Shown: piece after piece, positions 53,272 through 60,268 of the stretch | Numbering within the stretch: the stretch's first letter is position 1 | How the letters are laid out: the number at the start of each line of letters is the position of its first letter | Assembly (NCBI GenBank): GCA_035363115.1 | Contig: DAOSEM010000001.1 | Coordinates: forward strand, 335,356-399,355 | Source of the DNA: Syntrophales bacterium | GTDB lineage: Bacteria; Desulfobacterota; Syntrophia; Syntrophales; PHBD01 | DNA: 64,000 nucleotides | Direction of reading: 5' to 3' | Position numbers and translations under genes: made by a program | Notes under the pieces: generated by a model | Databases searched by the model: none | What the model saw: the letters and a program-made list of their open reading frames with translations, nothing else | What the model was told of the DNA's origin: nothing

Positions 53272-53577
53272 ATGAAGACCAGGAAATCCACAGCCGGTAG
53301 TCGGATGGAGAAAGCGGATGATCCCGTCCGGGTCGTGGAACGGATGATGGAGATGAAGCTCGAGGATATCGCCACGGTGCTGGGCGCGTCGGGCAATGGA
53401 AAAAGCCGGCTCCATGAAAATGTGATGACGATGGTGGAGCGGAGCCTCTTCCGGATCGCCCTCGGCCGTTCCGGCAATGTGCGCAGCAAGGCCGCGGCAT
53501 ACCTGGGGATCAACCGGAACACCTTCCAGAAAAAACTGATCCGGCTTGGTCTGGACGGCAATCCGGAGGAGGAGTGA
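53272..53577 (+). CDS. small Fis-type helix-turn-helix DNA-binding protein
   Basis: C-terminus GNVRSKAAAYLGINRNTFQKKLIRLGL is a typical Fis HTH. The start is uncertain. Confidence 0.6.
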   Translation: MKTRKSTAGSRMEKADDPVRVVERMMEMKLEDIATVLGASGNGKSRLHENVMTMVERSLFRIALGRSGNVRSKAAAYLGINRNTFQKKLIRLGLDGNPEEE

Positions 53578-53628
53578 GGATGCCGGGGGAGAAACCGGAC
53601 CGGACTTCGGTACGGGAGAGGCCGGGAG

Positions 53629-54894
53629 ATGGATGATGCTTTCCTGCCCGCCACCATACGCAGGCTCCTCGAGAAAGGCGTCCGCATCCCTCATCCCTGG
53701 ACCGTCGAGGTGGGGGATGAGGTTTCCCTCGACCGCGTCTCCGGCCGGGGCGTTGTCCTCCATGGCGGTGTCCGGCTTCGCGGTGAACGGACGCTCCTCT
53801 GTGACGGGGTAAAACTGGGGGCGGAAGGCCCGGCCGTCGTGGAAAACTGCCTCGCGGGGCCCGACGTCGAACTGAAAGGCGGCTTCTTCCGGGGGTCGGT
53901 TTTCCTCCGCGGCGTTCAGATCGGTTCCGCCTCCCATGTCCGGGAAGACTGCCTCCTCGAGGAAGAATCCTCCGGAGCTCATGCCGTCGGACTCAAGCAG
54001 ACCATCCTTTTCCCCTTCGTGACCCTCGGCAGCCTGATCAACTTCTGCGACTGCCTCATGGGGGGCGGCACGAGCCGCCGAAACCACAGCGAGGTGGGAA
54101 GCTCCTTCATCCATTTCAATTATACCCCCCGGCAGGACAAGGCGACGGCGTCTCTTCTCGGCGATGTTCCGCGCGGCGTCATGCTGGATCAGCCCCCCAT
54201 CTTTCTCGGCGGGCAGGGAGGAATCGTCGGGCCCGTCCGGATGGGGTTCGGAACGGTCCTTCCCGCCGGTTCGATCTGCCGCCGGGACGTTCCGGAGGGA
54301 GGCGTGACAACCGGCGAAGACGGCAGGGACCGGATTGAAGGACCCTTCCTCTCGAAACGGGGGGGGGATCTTGCCAGAAAAGTGCGGAACAACCTCCTGT
54401 ACATAGCCAATCTTTTCGCCCTGCGGGCCTGGTATGCACAGGTCCGGAGTCCCTTTTTCCGCGCCGCTTCGCACGAAGCGGAGCTGCTGCCGGGTGCGCT
54501 GGACGTCCTCGAAGGGGCGATTGCGGAGCGGCTTCTGAGGCTTCGGAATGTCGCCGCAAAACTGCCGCCGGAGGGCGAAGCGACCGGACCGGCGGGGGTT
54601 GTATCCGAACGCCGCCGGCAATTCAGGGAGCGGTGGCCGGAAGCCGAGGAGGTCCTTCAGGACGGAGCCGGGGATTGTGGAGATCCGATGCTCCGGGACC
54701 GGTTCCTGGCCGTCCGGGACCGGCTGGCGGGACGTCCGGCTGGGGCGGCGGACTATCTTCCCTTCATCCAGGCGCTCAAAAAGCCGGAGCGCCTCCTGGG
54801 GACGGCCTGGCTGGAGAGCATCGTGAACGACCGGATGGAACGGGTTCTGGGTGTGCTGACGGCCTTCCGTTCCGGGCCTGTGGAGGCGGCATGA
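53629..54894 (+). CDS. hypothetical protein with hexapeptide-repeat-like (left-handed beta-helix) N-terminal half and helical C-terminal half
   Basis: Periodic segments VVLHGGVRLRGERTLLCDGVKLGAEGPAVVENCLAGPDVELKG... and HSEVGSSFIHFNYTPRQDKATASLLGDVPRGVMLDQPPIFLGGQGGIVGPVRMGFGTVLPAGS resemble acyl/nucleotidyl-transferase LbH folds. Its stop overlaps the next ATG (ATGA). Confidence 0.6.
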   Translation: MDDAFLPATIRRLLEKGVRIPHPWTVEVGDEVSLDRVSGRGVVLHGGVRLRGERTLLCDGVKLGAEGPAVVENCLAGPDVELKGGFFRGSVFLRGVQIGSASHVREDCLLEEESSGAHAVGLKQTILFPFVTLGSLINFCDCLMGGGTSRRNHSEVGSSFIHFNYTPRQDKATASLLGDVPRGVMLDQPPIFLGGQGGIVGPVRMGFGTVLPAGSICRRDVPEGGVTTGEDGRDRIEGPFLSKRGGDLARKVRNNLLYIANLFALRAWYAQVRSPFFRAASHEAELLPGALDVLEGAIAERLLRLRNVAAKLPPEGEATGPAGVVSERRRQFRERWPEAEEVLQDGAGDCGDPMLRDRFLAVRDRLAGRPAGAADYLPFIQALKKPERLLGTAWLESIVNDRMERVLGVLTAFRSGPVEAA

Positions 54895-57800: not shown

Positions 57801-58658
57801 GACTTCTCCCACACCTTCAACAAGCTCCGGGACGAAGGGTCCTTTTCCGCCACCAGCGTCAAGGCCGTTTCGGATCTCGTTCTCCTCCTGAAGTACGCCA
57901 TGGGCAAACTCCCCCTGGAGGATTTCTGGAATGACTTCCGCGGCGACAACGGGCCGGTCTCGCCGCTGGACCTCCTGGACTTCACCCTTGCCCAGGCGGC
58001 GGAGGATCTCTCCCGCCCGGTGGACGCCATCCGCCACCAGGCGAAGACCGTCACCGTCGGGACGAGCCGCAAGGCCGCACCGCTCCGGGGGATCTTCTTC
58101 GACCTCCTCAGGGAGCTTGGCTTCACCGTGAAGGACCTGTCCTCCAGGGACATCATCGTCCTCAACCGCATTCAGCCGGGGGTGGAGGCGATCAAGGGGT
58201 ATACCCTCTACGGGATCGACCGCCTGGACGACGACGGAAGGCCCGCCGACCAGACCACGATCACGATCCGTGCAAGGGGCGGGGTCTCCCTCGGCATGGC
58301 CTCCCGTGCGGAAGGAACGAAAACGCTGATGGGAACGAAGCGGATGATTGTCCGCATCGGCCGCCTGTACGTGGGCAGGGGAAAGTCCGACGGGGCACCC
58401 ATTGTAATTATCCCCCTGCTGAAGGGAGGAATGGTCCGGAGCCTGCTCCTGATCCACGTCCGCTACAATGAAGCCCTGGCTCTCCGCGAAAAGGTGGAAG
58501 TCATCGGCTACGCCTACAACGACATCCGGAACCTGGTAAACGAGTACAACCTGGCGTGGGATGATCGTTACCTCGAGTCCTTCACCCTCGAATCGCTCCT
58601 GAGCGAGCCTCCCGAGGTGATTGCAGGAAAAATCAAACAAATGCTGGAGCCGGTATGA
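54891..58658 (+). CDS. giant GlmS-like protein: class-II (Ntn) glutamine amidotransferase + two SIS domains with leader, insertion and C-terminal extension (1255 aa)
   Basis: CGLAGIV (Cys at codon 55), [35 protein letters not shown] (GATase-II catalytic set). SIS motifs [10 protein letters not shown] and [10 protein letters not shown]. An internal QAKTVTVG resembles the GlmS C-terminal LAKSVTVE and is followed by about 198 more residues. Confidence 0.8.
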
Positions 58659-60268
58659 AAACAACCAAATTCATCTTCGTCACGGGCGGAGTGCTTTCCT
58701 CCCTGGGAAAAGGGCTGGCCGCGGCGTCCATCGCGGCGCTCCTGGAATCGCGGGGACTCCGGGTCACGAACCAGAAACTGGATCCCTACATCAACGTCGA
58801 TCCGGGCACCATGAGCCCCTTCCAGCACGGAGAGGTCTTCGTCACCGACGACGGCGCCGAGACGGACCTGGACCTGGGGCATTACGAGCGGTTCTCCACC
58901 ACGCGCATGGGCCGCGGCAACAACCTCACGACCGGCCAGGTCTACTACTCCGTCATCGCCAAGGAGCGCCGGGGCGACTACCTGGGCAAGACGGTGCAGG
59001 TCATTCCCCACATCACCAACGAGATCAAGGATTTCATCCGGACCACCGCGGAAGGATTCGACGTGGCCATCGTGGAGATCGGCGGGACCGTGGGGGACAT
59101 CGAGAGCCTGCCCTTCCTGGAGGCCATCCGCCAGTTCCGCAACGAGGTGGGAAGGCAAAACGCCATCTTCATCCACCTGACGTGGGTTCCCTTCATCAAG
59201 ACGGCGGGGGAGGTGAAGACCAAACCCACCCAGCACAGCGTCAAGGCCCTCCGGGAAATCGGCATCCAGCCGGACATCCTCCTCTGCCGGACGGAGGATA
59301 TCCTTTCCGAGGACATCAAGGCGAAGATCGCCCTGTTCTGTAACGTCGAGGTGGCCTCCGTCTTCACGGCGAAGGACGTCCGATGCATCTACCAGGTGCC
59401 GCTCAATTTCCACCGGGAGGGCCTGGACGGCAAGATCATCGACCTCCTGAACATCTGGACGGGCCAGCCCCACCTCGATGCCTGGGAGTCCGTGGTAGAC
59501 CGGATGATCGGCCCCTCCGGCGAGGTCTGCATCGCCATCGTGGGAAAGTATGTCAACCTTACCGACTCCTACAAGAGCCTCAACGAGGCCCTCGTTCACG
59601 GCGGCATCGCCAACGACTGCCGGGTGAACCTCCGGTTCGTCGATTCGGAGAAGATCGAGAAGGAAGGGCTGGGACACCAGCTCGACGGTGCGGACGGGAT
59701 TCTCGTTCCCGGGGGGTTCGGAAACCGGGGCATCGAGGGCATGATTATGGCTATTCATCAGGCCAGGACGAAGGGGATTCCCTTCTTCGGGATCTGCCTG
59801 GGGATGCAGATGGCGGTCGTCGAGTTCGCCCGGTTCGTCTGCGGGATGGAACGGGCCAACAGCTCGGAGTTCGACGAGGAGACTCCCTTCCCGGTCATCG
59901 ATCTCCTGCCCGAGCAGAAGGGCGTGACGGAGAAGGGGGCCACCATGCGCCTCGGTTCATATCCCTGCATGCTGGAGGAAAAAACCTTCGCCCACGAGGC
60001 TTACGGGCAGTGGGAGATCCAGGAGCGCCACCGGCACCGCTACGAGTTCAACAACGACTTCAAGGAGACCCTGACCGGGAAGGGGCTCCGGATCACCGGC
60101 ACTTCCCCCGACGGCCGCCTGGCGGAGATCGTCGAGATCAAGGACCACCCCTGGTATCTGGGATGCCAGTTCCACCCGGAATTCAAATCCCGGCCCACGA
60201 GCCCGCATCCCCTGTTCGCCCGGTTCATCGAGGCGGCCCGGGCGTTCAAGAGCAAGGACGGGTGCTGA
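58655..60268 (+). CDS. pyrG: CTP synthase
   Basis: [20 protein letters not shown]..., GICLGMQ (GATase Cys), [12 protein letters not shown] overlap with the upstream gene. Confidence 0.95.

Follow-up and report, generated by a model that had tools for sequence, protein, structure and literature searches.

A Syntrophales gene block pairing a remote GlmU acetyltransferase homologue with a giant GlmS-like enzyme is a proposed hexosamine supply locus upstream of pyrG

What do an amidotransferase resembling GlmS at twice the usual length, a left-handed beta-helix (LbH) protein and a cytidine triphosphate (CTP) synthase do together in one row of genes? The question is raised by five open reading frames (ORFs), all on the + strand, in a 64,000-nucleotide (nt) stretch of a Syntrophales bacterium (assembly GCA_035363115.1, contig DAOSEM010000001.1), hereafter called the window. 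The ORFs encode a Fis-like helix-turn-helix (HTH) protein, a protein with an LbH-like N-terminal half (hereafter the LbH protein), the giant GlmS-like enzyme (hereafter the giant), CTP synthase (pyrG) and an MtnA-like sugar-phosphate isomerase. An ORF check of the window found all five at the positions named in an earlier note on this DNA, and the gene order, the coordinates (Table 1), the ATGA stop/start overlaps at 54891-54894 (LbH/giant) and 58655-58658 (giant/pyrG), and the 12 nt between the pyrG stop and the isomerase GTG at 60281 are all in the sequence. From this arrangement the earlier note had proposed a self-contained pathway for an N-acylated amino sugar, possibly activated by cytidine mono- or diphosphate (CMP or CDP), with its function unassigned. 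We consider it reasonably probable that the locus is instead a Syntrophales-type hexosamine operon, supplying the precursor of uridine diphosphate N-acetylglucosamine (UDP-GlcNAc) and lying upstream of, and probably co-transcribed with, the housekeeping gene pyrG. On this view the row is the form that the usual UDP-GlcNAc supply for the cell wall takes in this lineage, and not a new CMP/CDP-sugar pathway.

The neighbourhoods of LbH genes were surveyed in 80 species-representative genomes, with up to 10 kilobases (kb) of flank on each side. The giant gene adjoins the LbH gene in 31 of the 80 loci; in two more, glmM and a nagB-like gene come in between, at a distance of 2.5-3 kb. The glmM gene (TIGR01455, E 3.5e-181) adjoins it in 39 loci, often followed by the gene for a NagB-like protein. 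One or the other is in synteny with the LbH gene in 68 of the 80 loci, and about half of the 12 loci with neither are short contigs. Loci of the giant type are from Syntrophales, Syntrophaceae or Smithella; those of the glmM type are mostly from Desulfobacterales, Desulfatiglandales, Desulfomonilia and Desulfovibrionaceae. The converse survey started from the C-terminal domain of the giant and gave 80 metagenome contigs, 44 of them with enough flank. The LbH gene is adjacent to the giant gene in 41 of these 44 loci, lies within 10 kb without being adjacent in two, and is missing from one, which supports the earlier proposal that the two are a real functional pair. In 40 of the 44 the block has pyrG as its 3'-terminal gene (31 adjacent to the giant gene, nine elsewhere in the flank), the Fis-like gene is upstream of the hexosamine block in 42, and glmM is near the giant gene in 12. 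The Fis-like gene is absent from the LbH-glmM loci of the Desulfobacterales type.

At least four gene orders occur: Fis-LbH-giant-pyrG, Fis-giant-LbH-glmM-nagB-pyrG, Fis-LbH-giant-pyrG-glmM, and a fourth in which nagB and glmM lie on the opposite strand between the giant gene and pyrG, in Fis-LbH-giant-(nagB, glmM)-pyrG. Through all of these variants the hexosamine genes remain together and pyrG is 3'-most. The row is far beyond chance, because the arrangement recurs in dozens of related genomes. The closest relatives of the locus are metagenome-assembled Syntrophales or Syntrophaceae; on contig Ga0228535_1000233 (locus L081) the giant is 95-99% identical and the whole gene order is in common, and this contig is probably the source of the DNA. 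No nucleotidyl- or cytidylyltransferase was found in the conserved cluster of the surveyed loci.

All NCBIfam and PDB sequence matches of the LbH protein are to GlmU, starting at about position 239, past the uridylyltransferase domain. The NCBIfam glmU profile places residues 8-238 onto GlmU 239-445 (E 5.8e-11), and PDB chains of GlmU match with E 1e-5 to 3e-5. No Pfam match was obtained, to an NTP_transferase domain or otherwise. When a profile of 95 LbH family members was compared by hhalign with one of 24 full-length GlmU sequences, 185 columns were aligned, reaching over GlmU residues 254-451, with a probability of 97.6% and E 3.5e-12. Clustered at 90% identity, the homologues number at least 7994 clusters, and their length is uniform (405-440 residues). 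Judged by these profile comparisons, the LbH protein is a stand-alone remote homologue of the linker helix and acetyltransferase beta-helix of GlmU with a helical bundle added at its C-terminus. The protein thus has the two halves, beta-helical and helical, that the earlier note had described, and its LbH domain is related, as had been suggested, to an amino-sugar N-acetyltransferase, namely the C-terminal half of GlmU. The LbH protein is proposed to be a glucosamine-phosphate N-acetyltransferase.

The hhalign alignment sets the family-invariant residues K123, H153 and N164 against a Lys, a His and an Asn of GlmU, which we take to be the catalytic residues Lys351, His363 and Asn377 (Escherichia coli numbering); in our GlmU alignment (A7) the His and Asn columns are His366 and Asn389. 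N-terminal of His153, a gap in the same alignment marks an almost invariant insertion of 18 residues, LFPFVTLGSLINFCDCLM, in which N138, F139, C140 and D141 are invariant and C142 is nearly so. A deletion of 12 residues relative to GlmU is also found near the active site. AlphaFold2 models the N-terminal turns and the C-terminal bundle with confidence, the bundle as helices 248-277, 283-311, 321-344, 353-367 and 385-409 with predicted local distance difference test (pLDDT) values mostly of 80-96. A Foldseek search with the model found generic helical bundles only (E at least 0.09) and is uninformative, because the beta-helix is poorly modelled. Databases often label members of the LbH family as 'UDP-N-acetylglucosamine pyrophosphorylase' or 'bifunctional GlmU' (P0003, P0004, P0017, P0022 and others), which looks like a propagated misannotation, because the pyrophosphorylase domain is absent. 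One homologue (P0034) is labelled 'PVC group bacterium'.

A further line of evidence comes from GlmU itself. In two of the surveyed loci (L051 and L059) a canonical glmU-glmS pair is divergent from the adjoining LbH-glmM-nagB genes, and its GlmU is short. A database search found a small clade of such short GlmU proteins, of 365-384 residues, nested among relatives of 452-479 residues at 72-83% identity. Nine cluster representatives (P0241, P0243, P0245, P0246, P0249, P0250, P0258, P0294 and P0334) have an in-frame deletion of about 87-100 residues, running from just after 'GRGSKA' to the 'KGW' ahead of the basic tail. The acetyltransferase catalytic coils are gone, and the uridylyltransferase domain, the first turns of the beta-helix and the C-terminal basic tail are kept. 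An assembly artefact was rejected, since nine distinct representatives have the same in-frame deletion and retain the C-terminal tail. All four deleted glmU genes with genomic context (L051, L059, L162 and L165) are beside LbH-glmM in divergent orientation, and three loci with full-length GlmU and the same flanks (PfkB / GlmU-GlmS-PcrA-ACT) are without the LbH cluster; this context sample is small, four deleted and four full-length genes. This pattern is most simply explained if the LbH cluster was gained first and the acetyltransferase half of GlmU was lost later. The LbH protein would therefore supply the same activity.

The giant matches the GlmS models PRK00331 (E 6.9e-71) and TIGR01135 (E 3.9e-64) of NCBIfam over a core of residues 337-929, and PDB chains of GlmS and GFAT with E 3e-19 to 2e-15. 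Its homologues have 1224-1313 residues and are 55-95% identical. The giant was aligned with a canonical 609-residue GlmS from a related genome (L059). The two have the same domain order, an N-terminal nucleophile (Ntn) glutaminase, two SIS subdomains and a C-tail with its Lys, but the giant is twice as long (1255 versus 609 residues), with a leader, three large inserts, an internal C-tail and a domain of 195 residues after it. The core motifs are kept, namely the CG nucleophile, RDSAG, HTRWA, NGxIxN, TDT, (S/T)QSGxTxDT, VASTK and the AK(S/T)VTV tail. The glutaminase motifs HTRWASVG (residue 345), LNGDIDNY and TTDTKIIP are nearly invariant among giants, and the isomerase motifs read 'TQSGTTTDT', 'VASTK' and 'ENKKHIDLS', versus 'SQSGETADT', 'VASTK' and 'AGEMKHGPIAL' in the canonical enzyme.

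The leader precedes the residue that corresponds to the mature N-terminus of GlmS. Across giants it is 43-60 residues long and ends at a 'CG' pair matching Cys1-Gly2 of GlmS; 'CGLAGIV' of the giant aligns with 'MCGIVGY', and all 18 of 18 sequences have this C and this G. The leader is possibly a propeptide. In Bacillus subtilis PurF and in the large subunit of glutamate synthase a leader must be removed to free the alpha-amino group of the nucleophile Cys; the leader of the giant differs from that of PurF in being longer and in having its own conserved motif. An alternative start at GTG 54633, as far upstream as the ORF is open, was rejected, as the N-termini of orthologues align to the stretch that directly follows ATG 54891 and a protein extended to that GTG would overlap the LbH gene.

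Profiles of the extra segments of the giant (A3, A4 and A5) gave nothing significant in Pfam, NCBIfam or PDB sequences. For insert 1 (A3) no PDB match was obtained below E 0.18 and no consistent Pfam match, and for insert 3 (A5), whose helices are modelled at pLDDT of about 70-92, no PDB match below E 0.36. Alignment with GlmS shows a further insert of about 60-75 residues within the glutaminase domain. The C-tail motif AKTVTVG is internal, and 195 residues follow it. Residues 916-1255 were modelled by AlphaFold2 at pLDDT 87, with the C-terminal domain mostly above 90; the best Foldseek matches of this domain, weak but consistent in theme, are to the regulatory region of the large (180-kDa) glutamate dehydrogenase and to GAF, LOV/PAS and Cache sensor domains. 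A ligand-sensing regulatory role is proposed for it from the model. A search of 1.84 billion representatives found the domain in only 219 representatives at 50% identity. It is always C-terminal in proteins of about 1125-1260 residues (a few of 1540) or in fragments, and because it is confined to that place it is a signature of the giant family.

The pyrG product matches NF003792 with 847.3 bits (cut-off 308) and TIGR00337 with 817 bits, and it has both PF06418 and PF00117. By these scores it is an ordinary, highly conserved CTP synthase, and its orthologues downstream of the block in related loci are 75-85% identical. A GGAGG lies 4 nt ahead of the giant ATG and a GGAG 5 nt ahead of the pyrG ATG, as Shine-Dalgarno sequences. 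The exact 4-nt overlap is not conserved: 14 of the 64 LbH-to-giant junctions and 18 of the 63 giant-to-pyrG junctions allow a start at -4 or -1, and the other junctions have gaps of about 5-190 nt. Between the giant gene and pyrG most gaps are of 50 nt or less, and nearly all of the 63 stay within about 100 nt. A consensus scan of the row found no sigma-70-like promoter and no intergenic terminator; the 11 terminator-like matches are all intragenic and at chance level, versus 8.6 expected from shuffles. The scan is uninformative if the organism does not use sigma-70 consensus promoters, as may be the case. The tight downstream linkage of pyrG noted earlier is borne out by adjacency and by short or overlapping junctions. 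The 3' position of pyrG shows linkage, not a CTP-dependent pathway. The isomerase fared differently. It scores 328.7 bits with NF004326 (above the cut-off of 271) and 277 with the MtnA equivalog TIGR00512 (just under 279), and its gene is 3' of pyrG in one of the 44 giant loci (L081) and in none of the 80 LbH loci. The MtnA-like isomerase, whose gene the earlier note had listed at the end of the row, is not a conserved member of the cluster.

The following route is proposed. The giant would act as a GlmS isozyme, as its conserved motifs suggest. Glutamine would be hydrolysed at Cys55, presumably once the 54-residue leader has been removed, and the ammonia would pass to the double-SIS domain, where fructose 6-phosphate would be converted to glucosamine 6-phosphate. 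GlmM, which is outside the window here and in the cluster in many relatives, would make glucosamine 1-phosphate. The LbH protein would acetylate the amino sugar phosphate with acetyl-CoA, a step to which homology, synteny and the GlmU-deletion clade point, and its substrate may be either the 1-phosphate or the 6-phosphate of glucosamine. The sugar is acetylated as the 1-phosphate in bacteria and as the 6-phosphate in eukaryotes. A separate uridylyltransferase, for example the N-domain of GlmU, would complete UDP-GlcNAc. More speculatively, the helical inserts and the GAF/PAS-like domain of the giant may be allosteric or oligomerisation modules that replace RNA-based control of glmS; no Rfam match to a glmS ribozyme or riboswitch was found at E up to 1 between 51900 and 55200. 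It may further be speculated that the leader is an autoprocessed propeptide and that the helical modules of the LbH protein and the giant mediate a complex. The standard UDP-GlcNAc route requires uridine triphosphate (UTP), not CTP. A joint demand of envelope synthesis for glutamine and for the UTP and CTP pools would most plausibly account for pyrG being on the same transcript, and nothing points to a cytidylylated product. The organism is diderm, with LpxC and LolA encoded in the window.

Several results weigh against the hexosamine supply reading. By sequence the LbH protein and the giant are variants of known enzymes, the acetyltransferase half of GlmU and GlmS, and each is under the curated thresholds: the LbH protein scores 41.9 bits versus the GlmU cut-off of 366.85 (TIGR01173), and the giant 217.2 versus 418.05 (TIGR01135) and 239.4 versus 381 (PRK00331). 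Because the nucleophile Cys of the giant is internal, its glutaminase activity would depend on processing of the leader. An invariant ENKKH replaces GE(L/M)KHGP with a deletion of two residues, and because this motif is changed the substrate could differ from fructose 6-phosphate. The Foldseek matches of the C-terminal domain have E of 0.012-0.2, none at or below 1e-3, with probabilities up to 0.98. Neither glmM, nagB, a canonical glmS nor a glmU N-domain was found within the 64-kb window, and the persistence of pyrG in the cluster is without a firm pathway rationale. The changed isomerase motif and the extra domains leave room for a non-standard substrate and so for the pathway first proposed, in which the LbH protein, the giant, CTP synthase and the MtnA-like isomerase would together make a new CMP/CDP-activated N-acylated amino sugar. 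Such a pathway would also fit the translational coupling of the genes in this genome and the 3' position that pyrG keeps in 40 of 44 loci despite rearrangements, and alternative nucleotide activation of glucosamine is known elsewhere, for example as guanosine diphosphate (GDP)-GlcNAc in legionaminic acid synthesis of Campylobacter. We nevertheless regard it as very improbable. The conserved cluster is without any cytidylyl- or other nucleotidyltransferase; about 20 further genes of the window have ordinary housekeeping or regulatory functions, and none of them codes for a nucleotidyltransferase. The recurring partners, glmM, the nagB-like gene, canonical glmS and a GlmU reduced to its uridylyltransferase half, belong to the UDP-GlcNAc route. 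The MtnA-like gene occurs in a single giant locus, pyrG codes for an ordinary CTP synthase, and the Desulfobacterales-type LbH-glmM loci lack pyrG, which is near the pair in only L017 and L038. To call the function unassigned is likewise too strong, since the gene neighbourhoods compared across genomes point to a specific one.

Similar weighing is called for where the active site of the LbH protein is presumed to lie. AlphaFold2 gives pLDDT below 50 over residues 127-197, the putatively catalytic and most conserved stretch, and HMMER puts the GlmU His on F139 where hhalign puts it on H153; because the two disagree, the mapping of catalytic residues is uncertain. In addition, one full-length GlmU (L167), the closest relative of the deleted clade, has the LbH cluster. 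That the LbH protein is a plain substitute for an absent GlmU was rejected on this ground. The same results, together with the 18-residue insertion, the 12-residue deletion and the large, confidently modelled bundle, would suit a non-enzymatic LbH protein, a regulatory or scaffold subunit with a degenerate beta-helix, whose bundle binds GlmS-type and GlmM enzymes. Degenerate beta-helices are used in this manner in the C-terminal LbH domains of some eIF2B or pyrophosphorylase proteins. We judge a scaffold of this kind quite unlikely: the remodelled stretch resembles an active site, because it is the most conserved part of the protein and holds many invariant polar residues (C140, D141, H153, E155, H162, D170 and K171), and if the LbH protein did not supply the acetyltransferase activity, it would be hard to explain why glmU genes lose precisely that core, cleanly and in frame, solely beside LbH genes. 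Synteny alone defines no pathway, because moaC, which opens the row, and the Fis-like gene are neighbours conserved to the same degree, and neither is given a part in the proposed route. It could be that only the LbH-giant pair is functionally linked and that the adjacency of the Fis-like gene, moaC, pyrG and mtnA is gene order inherited within Syntrophales. Conservation to the same degree is seen for moaC, for the membrane protein gene after it and even for upstream genes of the ilvE-like and Mg-chelatase-like kinds (clusters c8 and c6), so that synteny reaches across unrelated functions; mtnA is not conserved, and outside Syntrophales LbH-glmM is found without Fis and pyrG, all of which agrees with inherited order. 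We judge this reading unlikely. Identity among the LbH orthologues of these loci is down to about 50%, and the genes within the block occur in at least four orders, yet pyrG is still immediately 3', mostly across gaps of at most 50 nt, and 18 of 63 junctions fit a 4-nt overlap. Because pyrG stays 3' despite shuffling, with short gaps, co-transcription appears to be under selection.

To our knowledge, UDP-GlcNAc synthesis via GlmS, GlmM and the bifunctional GlmU is treated as universal in bacteria. The pathway is a target of antibiotics. The LbH protein resembles GlmU in aligning from the linker helix through the whole beta-helix (GlmU residues of about 245-450) and in having its gene adjoin glmS-type and glmM genes, as glmU does; it differs in being without the uridylyltransferase domain, in the insertion (rich in Cys and Asp) and the deletion around the active site, and in having a bundle of about 170 residues for the C-terminal arm. 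A preprint on NagU of Staphylococcus aureus describes some bacteria with an N-terminal-only GlmU and 'an unidentified acetyltransferase', and species of the Planctomycetes-Verrucomicrobia-Chlamydiae (PVC) superphylum with only the C-terminal acetyltransferase part of GlmU (10.64898/2026.06.23.733835). The deleted GlmU together with the LbH protein follows the same logic as a split GlmU, but the preprint mentions no Desulfobacterota and describes neither the LbH-helical architecture nor the giant GlmS (10.64898/2026.06.23.733835). Searches of the literature for GlmU or GlmS of Desulfovibrio and Syntrophus, and for GlmS forms of unusual length, gave nothing describing the LbH-helical or giant families.

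For Desulfobacterota, the LbH family offers a concrete candidate for such an acetyltransferase. A bolder proposal can be put forward only tentatively: that the family is this 'unidentified acetyltransferase' and that the giant is a GlmS activated by propeptide removal and controlled by a built-in GAF/PAS-like metabolite sensor in place of a ribozyme or small RNA, the two possibly forming a complex through their helical modules, in an allosterically gated, GlmU-independent route to UDP-GlcNAc that is widespread in Desulfobacterota and tied in transcription to pyrG so as to partition glutamine and UTP. An operon of pyrG with an envelope sugar-precursor gene has a parallel in the co-transcription of kdsB and pyrG in Chlamydia trachomatis, where CTP is a direct substrate for CMP-3-deoxy-D-manno-octulosonate (CMP-Kdo); unlike there, the link to pyrG here would be indirect, because the UDP-GlcNAc pathway needs UTP. 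Two large families, with at least 7994 LbH clusters and 219 representatives of the giant C-terminal domain, would on the proposed reading remodel the UDP-GlcNAc pathway in Syntrophales, Desulfobacterales and related anaerobes. If this is true, the LbH protein is a candidate for the acetyltransferase that is missing where GlmU has lost that half, GlmS is regulated at the protein level where ribozyme or GlmY/GlmZ-type control is not evident, and the widespread 'UDP-N-acetylglucosamine pyrophosphorylase' annotation of the LbH family is corrected.

Table 1. Positions of the genes and protein segments discussed. Positions are those of the window, except in the last four rows, where they are those of the named survey locus.
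Feature	Position	Strand	Remarks
moaC (cyclic pyranopterin monophosphate synthase)	52085..52702	+	first gene of row; PF01967 E 7.5e-58, TIGR00581 E 1.5e-65
Predicted membrane protein, 185 residues	52686..53243	+	overlaps moaC stop; between moaC and Fis-like gene
Fis-family HTH protein, 101 residues	53272..53577	+	PF02954 HTH_8 E 5e-9
LbH-helical protein, 421 residues	53629..54894	+	remote GlmU acetyltransferase homologue plus helical bundle (from sequence comparison)
GlmU-like part of LbH protein, residues 7-238	53647..54342	+	hhalign alignment
Family-specific insertion LFPFVTLGSLINFCDCLMGG, LbH residues 127-146	54007..54066	+	inside beta-helix, just before putative catalytic His153
C-terminal helical bundle of LbH protein, residues 248-409	54370..54855	+	replaces short GlmU C-terminal arm
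Giant GlmS-like amidotransferase, 1255 residues from ATG	54891..58658	+	Ntn-type glutaminase, two SIS subdomains and extras
Leader of giant, 54 residues	54891..55052	+	precedes nucleophile Cys; conserved 'ILFPL' motif
Cys55 codon of giant	55053..55055	+	counterpart of GlmS N-terminal nucleophile Cys1
Insert 1 of giant, residues 67-222 (about 156 residues)	55089..55556	+	between first beta-strand and first helix of glutaminase domain
Double-SIS isomerase region of giant, residues about 560-925	56568..57665	+	PF01380 E 2.9e-16
Insert 3 of giant, residues 926-1047 (122 residues)	57666..58031	+	helical; between second SIS subdomain and C-tail
GlmS C-tail motif of giant, residues 1048-1060	58032..58070	+	invariant; counterpart of GlmS terminal 'RNLAKSVTVE'
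C-terminal alpha/beta domain of giant, residues 1061-1255	58071..58655	+	family-specific; weak GAF/PAS-like fold matches
pyrG, glutamine-hydrolysing CTP synthase, 537 residues	58655..60268	+	NCBIfam CTP synthase E 5e-255
MtnA/eIF-2B-family sugar-phosphate isomerase, 334 residues	60281..61285	+	PF01008 E 2.4e-62
Deleted glmU, locus L051	8372-9526	-	
Deleted glmU, locus L059	8723-9718	-	
Deleted glmU, locus L162	6682-7821		
Deleted glmU, locus L165	3701-4846		

The row of co-directional genes is unbroken from 52085 to 61285 and begins upstream of the Fis-like gene, at moaC, the conserved upstream neighbour in Syntrophales-type loci. Matches to the moaC family in Pfam and NCBIfam start only at residues 48-62 of the ORF, and translation probably begins about 46 codons into it. 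The predicted membrane protein of 185 residues has no Pfam or NCBIfam match; in about 25 loci of the Syntrophales type its gene (cluster c3) likewise stands between moaC and the gene of the Fis-like protein. The Fis-like protein scores 36.2 bits with PF02954, above the cut-off of 22, and is under the NCBIfam cut-offs for Fis (48 versus 122 bits for NF002517 and 27.7 versus 99 for NF001659). Both moaC and mobB (62063-62590) are molybdenum-cofactor genes, and they bracket the block here; mobB is not downstream in the other loci. Between the isomerase gene and mobB are two small overlapping ORFs, of 113 residues (61661-62002, + strand) and 143 residues (61288-61719, - strand); no NCBIfam match to the former was found at E up to 1e-5.

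The NagB-like protein that travels with LbH-glmM has 318-344 residues with an insertion of about 45 residues and scores 149.7 bits versus the NagB cut-off of 236.9. It is encoded at 11368-12381 (- strand) of L038 and, as cluster c12, in L013, L015, L051, L059, L071, L162 and L167. It may work in the synthetic, ammonia-dependent direction, or it may serve hexosamine homeostasis. Directly 3' of its gene in LbH-glmM-nagB clusters is a gene for a protein of about 300 residues (cluster c50; L059:13670-14584, L162:1766-2668 and L167:410-1312) that has no Pfam match. The LbH-glmM loci L055 and L078 are from metagenome-assembled genomes labelled Gaiellales and Actinomycetota, and all others are Desulfobacterota-like; these labels could reflect mis-binning or horizontal transfer.

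Elsewhere in the window, a tRNA gene at 40337-40421 (+ strand) is the sole Rfam match of the whole 64 kb. An ORF of 1431 residues at 40603-44898 (- strand) fuses glycogen synthase (PF05693), DUF3417 and alpha-glucan phosphorylase (PF00343), and adjoins genes for a GT4 glycosyltransferase (44895-46094) and a glycogen debranching enzyme (46192-48213).

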